DNA of 5,797 nt, taken from positions 1 through 5,797 of the IMG/VR virus record IMGVR_UViG_3300045988_013551. One strand, 5' to 3'. Both the position numbers and the translations under genes were made by a program. A model generated the notes under the pieces. The model was given only the letters and a program-made list of their open reading frames with translations, had not been told where the DNA came from and ran no database searches. Source of the stretch: a virus. Positions 2,530 to 5,797 of this stretch are shown here, one piece after another. Position 1 is the stretch's first letter. Each line of letters opens with the position of its first letter.

Positions 2530-3387
2530 ATGGAAACGTTATTGAGCTTTATGCCGTACCTCATGCAAGGACTAAGCCTGTTAACAGGCATCATAACGAA
2601 CAGTAACCAAAGCAGCGCCAAAAACAGCCAAGGAGCGGGCAGCGAAAGCAGCACGAGCAGCGAGAGCACAACCGGCAGCTTAACAGCACCACAACAGATA
2701 GGTTCAACGCAAATCGGCACGCCAACAGGTATAACCACATTTGGTAACCAGAGCAGCGTAAACACAGCAAACGCGCTGCAAATGATGAGCGGACTACTGA
2801 GCAACCTCGCAAACGCTGGAAGCCAAGCAAGCGCGAAGAAGTACAACAGCGCGGAAGCAGCAGCAGAAAGAGCGTTCCAAAAAGAGATGCGCGGGACAGC
2901 CTATCAGGACACTGTAAAGGACATGATAGCAGCGGGCATCAATCCTATCCTAGCAGCGACCAACGGCGCAACAAGCGCACCGTCAGGAGCATCTGCAAGC
3001 ATTGGAAACCAGCATTATAACCAACAGAGCGCACAAGCGGCGAGTGTATCCGCAATGTACGAATATGGCAACAACACAGCAGAGCTGGCAGACAAATACT
3101 TACAGCTAGCAAAACAGGCAACCAGCGCAAAACAAATCAAAGCCGCAAAAAGCTGGGAGCAGTCAGCAAGCGAGCTGGCAAGCTCAAGCGCAAAACAGGC
3201 GCAACAGTACAGCTATGCAGCTAGCAAATTGGGTTCAGGCCTCGCAGGAGCTGGTAAAGCAGCCAAAGACGCAGCAAAAAAGGCAGGCGAAGCAGCCAAA
3301 GACACGGCAGGGAAATACAAAAAGTACAATCAAAGAGTACCGATTATGCCGAACATGGACACGTTCAACGCATACAGAGGAGACTAA
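2530..3387 (+). CDS. VP2: DNA pilot / minor capsid protein VP2 (285 aa)
   Basis: Hydrophobic N-terminus, S/T/Q/A-rich low-complexity regions, and the central motif ERAFQKEMRGTAYQDTVKDMIAAGINPILA (2866-2955). That motif matches the conserved gokushovirus VP2 signature (F-Q-x-x-M-x-x-T-A-Y-Q-x-x-V-x-D-M-x-A-A-G-(I/L)-N-P). Confidence 0.9.
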   Translation: METLLSFMPYLMQGLSLLTGIITNSNQSSAKNSQGAGSESSTSSESTTGSLTAPQQIGSTQIGTPTGITTFGNQSSVNTANALQMMSGLLSNLANAGSQASAKKYNSAEAAAERAFQKEMRGTAYQDTVKDMIAAGINPILAATNGATSAPSGASASIGNQHYNQQSAQAASVSAMYEYGNNTAELADKYLQLAKQATSAKQIKAAKSWEQSASELASSSAKQAQQYSYAASKLGSGLAGAGKAAKDAAKKAGEAAKDTAGKYKKYNQRVPIMPNMDTFNAYRGD

Positions 3388-3393
3388 GAAAGG

Positions 3394-3424
3394 AAGGGGG
3401 ATGGCAAAACATCCCCCTTTTTTA
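3394..3424 (+). terminator. Rho-independent terminator after VP2
   Basis: AAGGGGGATG (3394-3403), loop GCAAAA, CATCCCCCTT (3410-3419), with a T-run at 3418-3423. The stem is a perfect 10 bp. Confidence 0.8.
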
Positions 3425-3462
3425 ACAACAATAATCCAAAAAATAGAAAATGTGGAAAACTT

Positions 3463-3631
3463 GAGTTTTCAACACTTTCAACAGGTTTTCAACAACAAGT
3501 TGCACAAAGAAATTCGTCATAATGACGAACATTCAACAATTCAACAAGTTTTCAACAAAGTTTTCAACAAGTAAAAAGACAATAAATAAACATAGAAGCG
3601 TTAAAAAAACGAGTTTTCAACACTTTCAACA
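3463..3631 (+). repeat. Iteron-like array of same-orientation short repeats in the VP2-VP4 non-coding region
   Basis: TTCAACA starts at 3468, 3477, 3488, 3532, 3540, 3551, 3563, 3616 and 3625, nine copies all in one orientation. The 21-nt direct repeat GAGTTTTCAACACTTTCAACA lies at 3463-3483 and 3611-3631. The extended form CAACAAGT lies at 3493, 3542, 3565 and 3650. Confidence 0.85.
3513..3529. repeat. 17-bp palindrome TTCGTCAT-A-ATGACGAA between the two main repeat clusters
   Basis: Arms 3513-3520 and 3522-3529 are exact reverse complements around a single central base. Confidence 0.8.
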
Positions 3632-3650
3632 CTACTACTACTACTACTAC
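3631..3650. repeat. Trinucleotide microsatellite, (TAC)6 at 3633-3650 with a partial unit at 3631-3632
   Basis: actactactactactactac read directly; it sits in non-coding sequence between the last TTCAACA copy and the last CAACAAGT copy. Confidence 0.9.
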
Positions 3651-3683
3651 AACAAGTTAATATAAAAAGAAAGAGAGGTGTCA

Positions 3684-3718
3684 ACCGGCACAAGATAGAC
3701 AAGGAAGCTTGTGCCGGT
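3684..3718 (+). other. Perfect 11-bp stem-loop 12 nt upstream of the VP4 start codon
   Basis: ACCGGCACAAG (3684-3694) and CTTGTGCCGGT (3708-3718) are exact reverse complements. The loop is 13 nt (ATAGACAAGGAAG). No T-run follows, so it is not a typical terminator. Confidence 0.8.
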
Positions 3719-3730
3719 AACAAATGTTAT

Positions 3731-4720
3731 ATGCCATGTACAAAACCATTAGTATTTCAGATGGACACAAAGAAGCCAAAATTATGGGGAAGTCTGGAGA
3801 ACCTATCAAAGCAAGGACTACAAACAGACATCATGGACGGAGTAAAAAAAGGAAAATACGCATTATTACCATGCGGTAAGTGCGAATATTGCCGCAAACA
3901 GATAGCTGACCAATGGGCAACCAGAATAGAATTAGAAGCAAAAGAGTGGGACGATATAATTTTTCTGACGCTGACTTATGACGATGATCATATCCCATAC
4001 GGCGAGATACTCAAAGGTTACAGAAACATTCAGAGCCAAACAGTAAGCAAACGAGACGTGCAGCTATTCCTGAAACGGCTGAGAAAAGCGTACAAGAAGC
4101 CAATAAAATATTTCCTAGCGGCTGAATATGGTGACAGAACAAAAAGGCCACACTACCACGCAATAATATTTGGACTGAAACCACCAGATGCACAATGGTA
4201 TAAAAACCAAAAGGGCAACAGCTATTTCAAAAGCGAGTGGTTGGAAAAAATCTGGGGCAAAGGCATGATAGACTTTTCACCAGCACAGCCGGGAAGCTAT
4301 GCATACGTGGCACAGTACGTCAACAAAAAAGCCATAGGCACAGAACAGGCAACAAAATACTGGATGGAAGGGCGAGAGCCTGAATTCCGAATCATGTCAA
4401 AAGGCATCGGAGAAAAGTATCTGAAAGAACACAAAGATGAAATCTTAAAAACAGATAGCATCATATGCGCAGGAGGACGCGAGAAAAGGCCACCACGCTA
4501 TTTTGATAAGATACTCGACAAAGATACCAGCCAAGACACAGAAAGCTATTTTAAGGCGCATTCTGAAGAGCTGAGAGAGGTTAGAGCCAGACGCAGACGC
4601 AGTGCAATACAAAGTCTGGTCAATCTCGAACAATCTACAAGCGTGGATTACGAAACCTACCTCAACATTCAAAAAGAAAAAGACAAGCTAAAACAAAAGT
4701 GGCGAGAGCCAAAAACATAA
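3731..4720 (+). CDS. VP4: Rolling-circle replication initiator VP4 (phiX174 A-like HUH endonuclease, two-tyrosine type), 329 aa
   Basis: Motif I FLTLTY (3962-3979). Motif II HYH in PHYHAIIFG (4151-4159). Motif III YVAQYVNKK (4304-4330) has two Tyr spaced Y-x-x-x-Y and is nearly identical to the phiX174 gpA YVAKYVNK active site. The N-terminal M-P-C-x-x-P and CGKCEYCR (3872-3895) are typical of gokushovirus VP4. Confidence 0.95.
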   Translation: MPCTKPLVFQMDTKKPKLWGSLENLSKQGLQTDIMDGVKKGKYALLPCGKCEYCRKQIADQWATRIELEAKEWDDIIFLTLTYDDDHIPYGEILKGYRNIQSQTVSKRDVQLFLKRLRKAYKKPIKYFLAAEYGDRTKRPHYHAIIFGLKPPDAQWYKNQKGNSYFKSEWLEKIWGKGMIDFSPAQPGSYAYVAQYVNKKAIGTEQATKYWMEGREPEFRIMSKGIGEKYLKEHKDEILKTDSIICAGGREKRPPRYFDKILDKDTSQDTESYFKAHSEELREVRARRRRSAIQSLVNLEQSTSVDYETYLNIQKEKDKLKQKWREPKT

Positions 4721-4783
4721 CGCGCACAGCGCTAAAAAGGAAGATTTTATTAAGCCGAGTTCCGCGTGCGCTACACACGGCAG

Positions 4784-4800
4784 GGCGCTGAAGCGCCTTT
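4784..4800 (+). terminator. Weak terminator-like hairpin downstream of VP4
   Basis: GGCGC (4784-4788), loop TGAA, GCGCC (4793-4797), then TTT. The stem is only 5 bp and the T-run is short. Confidence 0.3.
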
Positions 4801-4846: not shown

Positions 4847-4874
4847 TCGACAAATTTTAAAAGTGTAGTATAAT
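4847..4874 (+). promoter_or_regulatory. Sigma70/SigA-type promoter for the 44-codon ORF
   Basis: TCGACA (4847-4852), 16-nt spacer, TATAAT (4869-4874). A second overlapping TATAAT lies at 4874-4879. The ATG at 4902 is 28 nt downstream of the first -10. Confidence 0.6.
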
Positions 4875-4901
4875 ATAATCAAAGAAGGGAAGGTACTCAA
4901 A

Positions 4902-5106: not shown

Positions 5107-5142
5107 AAAAAAATACCCGGTTGACAACCGGGTATTTTTTTT
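5107..5142 (+). terminator. Strong rho-independent terminator, symmetric with an A-tract upstream and a T-tract downstream
   Basis: ATACCCGG (5113-5120), loop TTGACAA (5121-5127), CCGGGTAT (5128-5135), with T8 at 5135-5142. The A-run at 5107-5112 can extend the stem. Confidence 0.85.
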
Positions 5143-5149
5143 ATATAAT
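5121..5149 (+). promoter_or_regulatory. Consensus promoter TTGACA-17-TATAAT embedded in the terminator hairpin
   Basis: TTGACA at 5121-5126 is the terminator loop. The 17-nt spacer at 5127-5143 is the 3' stem arm plus the T-tract. TATAAT lies at 5144-5149, followed by AAGGAGGTG (5156-5164) and ATG 5171. Confidence 0.7.
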
Positions 5150-5421: not shown

Positions 5422-5797
5422 ATGCTGCATGAATACAGCTTATTTAATCAGGGCACCCAACAAGTAAGCGAACACTTCAAGATTCAAGAATTTGCACAAA
5501 AAGACTACCGGTGTGATAAAATTCTTATTGAATCAGAACTAATAAAAGTGCTAGAAGATATAAGAACACACTTCAATAAACCGGTAATCATCACCAGCGG
5601 CTACAGAACACCAGAATACAACAAGAAGGTCGGCGGTGTAAAAAATTCACAACACACAAAGGGCACGGCAGCAGACATCAAAGTGAAAAATGTGCTAGCC
5701 AGCAAGGTGCAAAACTACCTAAGCAAAAAATATCCCAACAAATACGGCATAGGTAGATACAACAACTTTACGCACATAGACGTGCGAAAAAAAAAAG
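5422..5797 (+). CDS. Zinc D-Ala-D-Ala carboxypeptidase-like cell-wall peptidase, Peptidase_M15 (M15A / M15_3-like). It is 130 aa in total, runs off the window end and continues at 1-116
   Basis: My translation: MLHEYSLFNQGTQQVSEHFKIQEFAQKDYRCDKILIESELIKVLEDIRTHFNKPVIITSGYRTPEYNKKVGGVKNSQHTKGTAADIKVKNVLASKVQNYLSKKYPNKYGIGRYNNFTHIDVRKKKARWRG. It carries the signature SGYR-x4-N-x2-VGG-x3-S-x-H-x2-G-x-A-x-D (5596-5676; H 5653-5655, D 5674-5676) and the distal F-x-H-x-D (H 5773-5775, D 5779-5781). GAGGAG lies 5 nt upstream of ATG 5422. Confidence 0.85.
   Translation, partial: MLHEYSLFNQGTQQVSEHFKIQEFAQKDYRCDKILIESELIKVLEDIRTHFNKPVIITSGYRTPEYNKKVGGVKNSQHTKGTAADIKVKNVLASKVQNYLSKKYPNKYGIGRYNNFTHIDVRKKK
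5699..5797. repeat. Terminal direct repeat, right copy; identical to 1-99
   Basis: See the left copy; both copies include the same A10 run. Confidence 0.95.

Follow-up and report, generated by a model that had tools for sequence, protein, structure and literature searches.

The stretch of DNA analyzed here (the window), 5,797 nucleotides of the IMG/VR virus record IMGVR_UViG_3300045988_013551, represents the whole of a circular gokushovirus genome, 5,698 nt long; bases 1-99 recur at 5699-5797, and the + strand carries every gene. Between the VP2 stop at position 3387 and the ATG of VP4, the gene for the HUH rolling-circle Rep, at position 3731 lies a gap of 343 nt that houses an array of short direct repeats. 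Two open reading frames (ORFs) cross this gap, and neither has a match in Pfam. We conclude from sequence comparisons that the element is very probably a compact mimic of the origin-unwinding region that the phage's hosts carry between dnaA and dnaN, with host-type DnaA boxes, consensus DnaA-trios and a short AT-rich tract.

A previous, sequence-only reading of this stretch described the region as non-coding, functional at the DNA level and origin-like in its build, and this description was upheld, as were its observations on the repeats. The nine same-orientation copies of TTCAACA all lie on the + strand, at 3468, 3477, 3488, 3532, 3540, 3551, 3563, 3616 and 3625, and form three clusters with internal spacings of 9 and 11, of 8, 11 and 12, and of 9 nt. 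The mean number of copies in shuffled sequences was 0.88, and none of 200 shuffles reached nine. Four copies of CAACAAGT are present in the region, at 3493, 3542, 3565 and 3650, with one more elsewhere at 5458 (0.24 expected). The long direct repeat runs over 28 nt (3456-3483 versus 3604-3631, 89% identity) with the exact core GAGTTTTCAACACTTTCAACA, and both the flanking palindrome (3513-3529) and the long stem-loop (perfect 11-bp stem, 3684-3694/3708-3718) are present. The earlier description had missed or left uninterpreted three features: the repeats have a 9-mer, TTTTCAACA or CTTTCAACA, as their natural unit, a run of six CTA triplets, (CTA)6, directly follows the last repeat, and a perfect DnaA box lies on the opposite strand. 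The parts of the module, given with predicted folding free energy (dG) and z-score where they are self-complementary, are as follows.

3451 to 3459, - strand: perfect consensus DnaA box, TTTTCCACA on this strand; the sole zero-mismatch TTWTNCACA in the window
3466 to 3494, + strand: box cluster A, with TTTTCAACA at 3466-3474, CTTTCAACA at 3475-3483 and TTTTCAACA at 3486-3494
3513 to 3529, between clusters A and B: 17-bp palindrome TTCGTCAT-A-ATGACGAA (dG -6.5, z -3.7)
3530 to 3569, + strand: box cluster B, with CATTCAACA at 3530-3538, AATTCAACA at 3538-3546, TTTTCAACA at 3549-3557 and TTTTCAACA at 3561-3569
3599 to 3611, between clusters B and C: small palindrome CGTT-AAAAA-AACG (dG -2.5, z -3.1; weak evidence)
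3614 to 3631, + strand: trio-adjoining box pair, TTTTCAACA at 3614-3622 and CTTTCAACA at 3623-3631, in the position of DnaA-boxes 6/7 of the B. subtilis oriC
3632 to 3649, + strand: (CTA)6, giving six consensus DnaA-trios (3'-GAT-5') on the - strand (0.42 expected)
3650 to 3674, + strand: conserved tail CAACAAGTT, then AT-rich tract AAGTTAATATAAAAAGAAAGA, ~86% A+T

The window thus holds 9-10 DnaA boxes within ~180 bp, a dense cluster outside a chromosome origin that would suit titration of DnaA and an origin function alike. The segment 3650-3674 is a candidate unwinding site and, more speculatively, might also hold the nick site of Rep. Its AT-rich tract (3654-3674, ~21 nt, ~86% A+T) is short, and the AT maximum of the genome lies elsewhere.

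When the whole genome was compared with GenBank phages by megablast, two close relatives were found, and three otherwise unalignable microviruses matched only at the repeat region (3467-3670, 79-89% identity). The repeat region lies downstream of VP4 in MG945447 and KT264791, and in the latter it is inverted relative to the genes. A search of IMG/VR for the exact 19-mer at the core of the middle cluster, TTCAACAATTCAACAAGTT, returned at least 119 contigs, of which at least 115 are microviruses of 4-6 kb; four were chance matches in coding DNA and were discarded. Sampling by Rep similarity added 59 further loci, and every full-length one carried the module. Overall, the module was present in 166 of 166 distinct related contigs, six of them judged by eye (variant tails or contig ends), with 9-13 boxes per genome. 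Exactly one copy was found in 147 of 155 contigs, always adjoining VP4, and the unwinding end pointed toward VP4 in 149 of the 155. These relatives fall into two classes. In the near class, whose VP4 is 79-96% identical to that of the window, the module lies between VP2 and VP4 with its tail a median of 79 nt ahead of the VP4 start (70 in the same orientation, 2 inverted). In the far class, whose VP4 is 31-48% identical (VP1 ~42%), it lies after VP4 (84 inverted, 4 in the same orientation), and its DNA is on average 72% identical to the window's. A variant of the module is also carried by KX513864. Among eight distant microviruses sampled evenly down the VP1 similarity ranking, seven lacked the box cluster and the trio run, the sole carrier being KT264800 (mink), which argues that the module is a lineage-specific addition and not a universal gokushovirus origin. 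The sequence-only reading had proposed to look for relatives without the repeats, and the answer was divided: the close relatives all carry them, and seven of the eight distant ones do not.

The individual slots of the module vary by lineage. The last slot of cluster A is often TTTTCCACA in far-class relatives, and the third slot of cluster B is often the canonical TTATCCACA in far-class phages. The opposite-strand box at 3451-3459 is present in the closest near-class relatives (VP4 at least 91% identical) and in KX513864, and is absent from the subgroup at 80% and from the far class. It stands head-to-head with the first + strand box, so that pairing with 3466-3474 in single-stranded DNA (ssDNA) is possible and would give a hairpin holding a duplex box (3446-3479, dG -7, z -2.75). 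At the slot of the 17-bp palindrome, other lineages have a different inverted repeat of 7-8 bp, TGCACAAA-N4-TTTGTGCA or TGTTAAA-N-TTTAACA, which indicates that self-complementarity is conserved there rather than sequence. Relatives likewise have other short palindromes at the slot of 3599-3611, such as ACGCT-TT-AGCGT and GCGT-ATCA-ACGC. Separately, we observed long alternating purine-pyrimidine GC-rich palindromes (CGCGCGTGCGCGCGTGCGCGC...) by the AT-rich end of the module in L003 (2296-2345), L002 (2976-3013) and most far-class loci. They are not found in the lineage of the window, and they could form Z-DNA or cruciforms.

The dominant 9-mer, TTTTCAACA, is one base off the DnaA-box consensus TTWTNCACA, and its slots are occupied in far-class modules by TTTTCCACA or TTATCCACA, both canonical DnaA boxes. 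Of 78 far-class modules, 61 had at least one box that matched TTWTNCACA perfectly. Across 160 modules, position 6 of the box was A in 1,253 cases, C in 242, and G or T in 11. Because this position is almost exclusively A or C, the boxes alternate between the local variant and canonical DnaA sequence; a box for the regulator Spo0A would need G at position 6, and since G or T is nearly never seen, the variation does not run toward a Spo0A box. The end of the module has the same order throughout the 160: a tandem box pair, a spacer of 0-7 nt (mostly 0 or 4), triplets, CAACAAGT[TA] and an AT-rich stretch. A run of 5-6 in-frame triplets was found in 149 of these modules, with CTA making up 735 of ~870 triplets, and a run held at 5-6 units is not a free microsatellite. 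The sequence CAACAAGT[TA] stands 3' of the trios in 153 of 160 modules, and the 30 nt past the last CTA have a mean A+T content of 71%, compared with 54% for the genomes.

The basal unwinding system (BUS) of bacterial origins consists of two DnaA boxes, followed by trios and then by AT-rich DNA (PMC6669920, PMC8287927). Published search rules for it allow up to 2 mismatches in the box and a spacer of 0-16 bp, and call for at least three trios (PMC8287927). We applied these rules with the box compared to TTATCCACA, an optional tandem box with at most 4 mismatches lying at most 3 bp away, and NAN trios on the opposite strand. In the window, the box TTTTCAACA at 3614-3622 has 2 mismatches to TTATCCACA and is separated from the first trio by the 9 bp of the second box; the tandem box CTTTCAACA at 3623-3631 has 3 mismatches and follows with a 0-bp gap; and six consensus trios are found on the - strand opposite (CTA)6. 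Boxes, trios and AT-rich DNA have the same order and strand as in the bacterial loci L211, L213, L141, L168 and L174, which are described below. The location is not chromosomal: the module lies between VP2 and VP4 of a 5.7-kb microvirus. For this reason we class it as a mimic or derivative rather than an oriC proper. A published C. difficile trio has the form 5'-CACCTACTACTATTACTACTATGA-3', with three boxes ahead and the unwinding region behind (PMC7561715). The + strand of (CTA)6 is a series of overlapping 5'-TnnT-3' motifs, and TnnT on the strand complementary to the trios is what DnaD of B. subtilis recognizes in ssDNA (PMC10201434).

The same layout was found in bacterial chromosomes. A scan of 185,579 species genomes for the box-pair 18-mer TTTTCAACACTTTCAACA returned at least 120 loci, compared with ~17 expected by chance according to our own calculation, and among the matches listed about half belonged to Oscillospiraceae, Ruminococcus and other Clostridia from guts. 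In two Ruminococcus metagenome-assembled genomes (MAGs), L211 and L213, the match lies between dnaA and dnaN, with recF and gyrB next in L213; all four genes were verified with Pfam. This dnaA-dnaN region contains 16-29 same-strand TTTTCAACA or TTTTCCACA boxes, and the array ends in box-g-box-cccc-(CTA)5, AT-rich DNA and, directly after, dnaN, with box pairs near-identical to those of the window. Three further loci from Clostridia or Bacillales (L141, L168 and L174) have the exact sequence TTTTCAACAcTTTCAACA, 4 nt, trios, AT-rich DNA and dnaN. In total, at least 12 matches to the 18-mer fell next to dnaA in intergenic sequence. Of the 15 matches listed at dnaA, three (L143, L165 and L219) are within its coding sequence, in which the codons of E-F-F-N-T-F-N produce TTTTCAACACTTTCAACA; box-pair searches therefore yield false positives within dnaA, and we discounted these three. 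Position 6 of the box was A in 28 and C in 8 cases in L211, and A in 21 and C in none in L213. Judged by these loci, TTTTCAACA fills the DnaA-box sites of real chromosome origins in the Ruminococcus/Clostridia group. The DnaA proteins of the two Ruminococcus MAGs (L211 3054-4463, L213 6646-7983) retain R399, D433 and H434, and three of six base-contact residues are changed relative to E. coli and B. subtilis (P423 to A or Q, T435 to S, H439 to Y). These changes may be compatible with a lineage-specific shift in box preference. Two Thermotogota MAGs, L137 (Mesoaciditoga, 2132-2800) and L169 (Athalassotoga), also have arrays of 12-14 TTTTCAACA boxes, which in L137 end in TTTTCAACAcTTTCAACAgtac(CTA)4 and AT-rich DNA; dnaA was not detected in the fetched stretches of either. 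By these arrays, the box variant and the unwinding layout exist outside Firmicutes as well.

Alignment between the phage and host origins is confined to the box arrays, in stretches of at most 38 nt. Extended homology with a particular host origin was therefore rejected, and the alignments lend no support to a recent direct capture from a sampled genome; with similarity limited to the arrays, capture and convergence look alike. None of the bacterial loci among the matches listed for the 18-mer (at least 120) carried microvirus genes. A blastn search of the module with 11-base words against the plasmids in PLSDB returned no match. Exact-protein look-ups left VP4 and VP5 unmatched and placed a small protein only on contigs of at most 6.1 kb, with no sign of integration. 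On the basis of the MAGs and of motif sharing, the hosts are likely Oscillospirales, that is, Ruminococcus-like Clostridia.

With moderate confidence, we further propose that the array, as a ~210-bp mimic of the unwinding part of a Firmicutes origin ('incC/oriC2' type) reaching from 3451 or 3466 to 3674, recruits host DnaA for replication. Host DnaA-ATP would occupy the boxes on the double-stranded replicative form and extend as an oligomer from the final pair of boxes along the strand with the trios, and the duplex would open at ~3632-3674. The opened DNA would then serve phage replication, in that theta-type copying of the replicative form could be started through loading of the host helicase (DnaD/DnaB/DnaI-DnaC in Firmicutes); less likely, the bubble would be a single-stranded substrate for the HUH Rep VP4 beside its own gene. 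The trio run and its length, the polarity set by the tandem box pair, the tail and AT tract, and the single copy beside Rep are all conserved although they would matter for unwinding only, and we argue from this that DnaA-driven opening is probably in use, most simply in starting or aiding replication of the double-stranded form. Both orientations of the module are common, which points to action on double-stranded DNA and speaks against a strand-specific ssDNA signal. The coding-strand skew of A over T is equal in the two orientation classes; this comparison, which is confounded by coding bias, also speaks against such a signal and does not support strand flipping. A more far-reaching version, in which a working chromosomal-origin unit has been captured and the DnaA/DnaD machinery of the host replicates or opens the double-stranded form as a chromosome-like replicon under host cell-cycle control, is possible but doubtful. 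If it were true, such a replicon could support a non-integrated carrier state, and the HUH Rep would serve only single-strand production or would nick the DnaA-opened bubble, in a hybrid of theta and rolling-circle initiation. We found no description of hybrid initiation of this kind in any ssDNA virus, as far as we searched.

The sequence-only reading had offered a different mechanism for the array beside Rep, in which VP4 binds the repeats as the iterons of a rolling-circle or theta origin. Its origin-type, non-coding build stood; the VP4-bound mechanism was not supported, and we consider it very improbable. The repeats are phased and direct, and the module is always next to VP4, as iterons would be. 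The conserved tail CAACAAGTTAAT, which we take to be loosely like the nick region of phiX174, is moreover specific to the phages: it was confined to microvirus loci and absent from the bacterial loci, host origins included, among the matches listed (at least 120). However, the same repeats occur in the same order with VP4 proteins only 31-48% identical, where the module retains a mean identity of 72%, and the similarity of modules is uncoupled from that of the Reps: the window's module is 82% identical to that of MG945447, whose VP4 is 37% identical, and 79% identical to that of KT264784, whose VP4 is 81% identical. The module can also lie upstream or downstream of VP4 and in either orientation. 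In L249 (470-1870), near-class VP2, leader and VP4 (95% identical) are present, the gap between VP2 and VP4 is cleanly module-free, and downstream of VP4 there is an inverted module of the far type together with far-type downstream DNA. By this arrangement L249 is a natural recombinant in which the module was swapped as a cassette, and the module, on the comparisons above, is an exchangeable, lineage-specific cassette that is independent of which VP4 is present. Finally, Ruminococcus and other Clostridia, whose chromosomes have no VP4, carry these 9-mers between dnaA and dnaN; relatives of the phage have canonical DnaA boxes at the corresponding slots; and no phiX-type origin sequence was found in the window with up to 3 mismatches.

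Three other explanations were weighed against a DnaA-opened origin. The array could be a DnaA sponge or sensor, with multi-copy replicative forms titrating DnaA, blocking or re-timing host initiation, or coupling phage expression to the level of DnaA-ATP, in the manner of known titrators such as datA, the DnaA-box clusters of B. subtilis and incC plasmids. Nine to thirteen boxes per genome, the dispensability of the module for microviruses generally and its orientation independence, which suits a pure binding site, all agree with this idea, and plasmids with the B. subtilis incC region, which inhibit chromosomal initiation, offer a precedent (PMC6669920). We nevertheless regard it as unlikely: titration needs boxes alone, yet the trio run with its length of 5-6, the polarity, the tail and the AT tract are kept in essentially all modules, and there is one copy per genome, always by VP4. 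Rather less probable still is a complementary-strand origin, at which the hairpins and the trio/DRE (DnaD recognition element) run would nucleate a DnaA- or DnaD-dependent primosome on incoming ssDNA. The hairpin at 3446-3479 with its duplex DnaA box, the self-complementary spacers between box clusters, whose sequence differs by lineage, and the TnnT run on the + strand of (CTA)6, the ssDNA element of B. subtilis DnaD (PMC10201434), would suit it. However, the box hairpin is found only in part of the near class, and the occurrence of both module orientations with the same coding-strand skew is hard to reconcile with it unless the packaged strand differs too.

The array might also be bound by another host protein, such as Spo0A or a response regulator of the OmpR family, which are known to bind direct repeats at ~11-bp phasing. 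TGTTGAA is one base from the 0A box, TGNCGAA, and the palindrome at 3513-3529, TTCGTCATAATGACGAA, comprises two inverted perfect matches to it; the spacings of 11-12 bp in cluster B fit as well. We rejected this identity because position 6 of the box is A or C and nearly never G and because the trio run at the end of the array is a feature specific to DnaA origins, so that this reading is scarcely credible. In addition, the palindrome is replaced by unrelated sequences in other lineages, and these boxes are found where boxes 6/7 stand in chromosomal origins, among them that of L234, labelled Mycoplasma, a genus not known to form spores. Two further identities were discarded: a dif/XerCD-like site for the palindrome at 3513-3529, in which no match to a XerD arm was seen by eye, and a mobile element like a miniature inverted-repeat transposable element (MITE), which the variable position and orientation had suggested, since no terminal inverted repeats were seen and each genome has a single copy of the module, invariably by VP4.

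Several points weigh against the proposal of a DnaA-opened origin itself. The dominant box differs from the textbook consensus, and it is equally one mismatch from the extended Spo0A box TTTTCGACA. The AT-rich tract behind the trios is only ~20 nt long, and the genome is richer in A+T elsewhere. Textbooks present microviruses as rolling-circle replicons that do not depend on DnaA, and seven of the eight distant ones manage without the module, which is thus not the core origin of the family. Boxes alone would suffice for titration of DnaA, and only the conservation of trios and tail would speak for a use in unwinding. The 19-mer search selected for the module, and the unbiased sample drawn by Rep similarity spans only the same two clades.

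Comparison with known systems places the module closest in build to the BUS, a system reportedly due to Richardson 2016/2019 and Pelliciari 2021. The tandem boxes, the at least three GAT trios opposite and the AT-rich DNA are shared with boxes 6/7 of the B. subtilis incC and with the C. difficile oriC2 (PMC8287927, PMC7561715), further same-orientation boxes lie upstream, and order and polarity are as in the dnaA-dnaN regions of Ruminococcus and Clostridia. Unlike the BUS, the module is carried by a 5.7-kb rolling-circle ssDNA phage away from dnaA and dnaN, is compressed to ~210 bp, has its own conserved tail CAACAAGTT, a very short AT-rich tract and palindromic spacers between clusters, and is a movable cassette found in either orientation. 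With the iterons of Rep-dependent plasmid, geminivirus and CRESS origins it shares short phased direct repeats in non-coding DNA beside rep, whereas its repeats do not co-vary with Rep, are shared with host chromosomes and match the site of the host initiator. Host DnaA sites are carried by the plasmid and phage origins of pSC101, P1, F and RK2 and by titration loci (datA and the B. subtilis clusters), which resemble the module as mobile replicons or loci with such sites. To our knowledge, these elements have one to a few boxes aiding a plasmid initiator, or boxes without an unwinding element; the module, in contrast, is a complete box-trio-AT unit on a replicon whose own initiator is an HUH nickase. 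The (+) origin of phiX174, a member of the same virus family, lies within gene A (CAACTTG/ATATTAATAAC) in a conserved sequence of ~30 bp, CAACTTGATATTAATAAC..., to which we found no match with at most 3 mismatches anywhere in the window. The tail CAACAAGTTAATATAAAA has a similar make-up, CAAC..G and then an AT-rich run, and differs from the phiX174 origin in that the module lies outside the Rep gene and on either strand relative to the genes. The 'A site' of the ABC-primosome (Masai and Arai) is said to be an ssDNA hairpin with a DnaA box, and the hairpin at 3446-3479 would likewise present a duplex DnaA box on ssDNA; unlike the A site, it occurs in one sub-lineage only, and the other boxes of the module are direct repeats that form no duplex on ssDNA.

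The genes of the window and the features that border the module are as follows.

120 to 374, + strand: VP5
340 to 789, + strand: scaffold-like VP3
806 to 2491, + strand: VP1 capsid protein
2530 to 3387, + strand: VP2
3394 to 3424, + strand: terminator-like hairpin after VP2, AAGGGGGATG / CATCCCCCTT and then a T run (hairpin at 3394-3419, dG -10.6 kcal/mol, z -3.5)
3674 to 3730, + strand: VP4 leader, with the Shine-Dalgarno (SD)-like GAGAGGTG, the perfect 11-bp hairpin (3684-3694/3708-3718) and the VP4 start (dG -13.2, z -6.05)
3731 to 4720, + strand: VP4, HUH rolling-circle Rep (Pfam PF23343, E 1.8e-20; HUH and Y..Y motifs conserved)
from 5422, + strand: M15 peptidase; several small ORFs are also present in the window

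The terminator-like hairpin forms the left border of the non-coding region and lies outside the module; it is retained in L249, whose gap is module-free. The SD-like sequence and the hairpin at 3674-3718 are also kept with VP4 in L249, which indicates that they belong to the VP4 leader and are not part of the module. The SD-like GAGAGGTG stands ~50 nt ahead of the VP4 ATG, and the 11-bp hairpin, whose stem shows compensatory changes in KT264784 and KX513864, bridges the two. Together they may act as a split ribosome-binding site or as an element that controls the translation of Rep. Rfam, searched with the entire window (E of at most 1), gave three sub-threshold chance matches and no RNA family.

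Other signals were noted elsewhere in the window. At 4722-4797 lies a second non-coding element, CGCGCACAGCGCT..GCCGAGTTCCGC..CACGGCAGGGCGCTGAAGCGCC, whose DNA sequence is shared by near-class and far-class phages. Its stem covaries (GCCG-A-GC/GC-A-CGGC, AT/AT or GT/AC), and a terminator-like GC hairpin closes it. The element is gene-oriented in every case and in the far class adjoins the box end of the module. This element is a candidate for another cis-acting signal. Near-consensus promoters of the sigma-70 type stand ahead of small ORFs at 4847-4876 and 5121-5149 (TCGACA-16-TATAAT and TTGACA-17-TATAAT), and most genes of the window have strong GGAGG ribosome-binding sites. The strong SD sequences and the TTGACA-17-TATAAT promoters fit a Firmicutes host. 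The A-over-T skew of the coding strand is strong, +0.32 to +0.37, in the window and in all related contigs; the packaged strand of phiX174 is T-rich, which is the reverse.

Beyond the microviruses, we scanned IMG/VR for a canonical TTATCCACA followed within at most 16 nt by CTACTACTA. More than 30 larger viral contigs had clear modules of box pair, spacer, trios and AT-rich DNA with several boxes upstream, including L320, L331, L333, L336, L341, L344, L365, L375, L386, L388 and L402, among others (4-160 kb). Their layout is TTATCCACAtTATCCACA, 3-4 nt, (CTA)3-6 and AT-rich DNA, with 4-9 boxes upstream, and dnaA and dnaN were absent from the fetched stretches of the larger contigs with modules. 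Recombinase ORFs were seen by eye 1-3 kb from the module in three of four larger contigs examined, ERF-like in L331 and L402 and RecT-like in L375. Judging from these layouts, origin mimicry may extend to double-stranded DNA phages.

Rolling-circle phages are exemplified in textbooks by the Microviridae, which are taught to replicate independently of DnaA. We found nothing relevant in the open-access literature that links Microviridae, gokushoviruses or microviruses with DnaA, DnaA boxes, DnaA-trios or oriC, and no mapped origin for this phage group, as far as we searched. The module provides a concrete candidate for a cis-acting replication element in these gut gokushoviruses. From sequence it also predicts Ruminococcus-like Oscillospirales as the hosts of these abundant, uncultured phages of the gut, and it points to TTTTCAACA as the box variant at work in the origins of such Clostridia, in which the DNA-reading residues of DnaA are changed as well. 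Overall, the finding suggests that very small phages can adopt the initiator pathway of their host, with implications for carrier states and for interference with the replication of the host.

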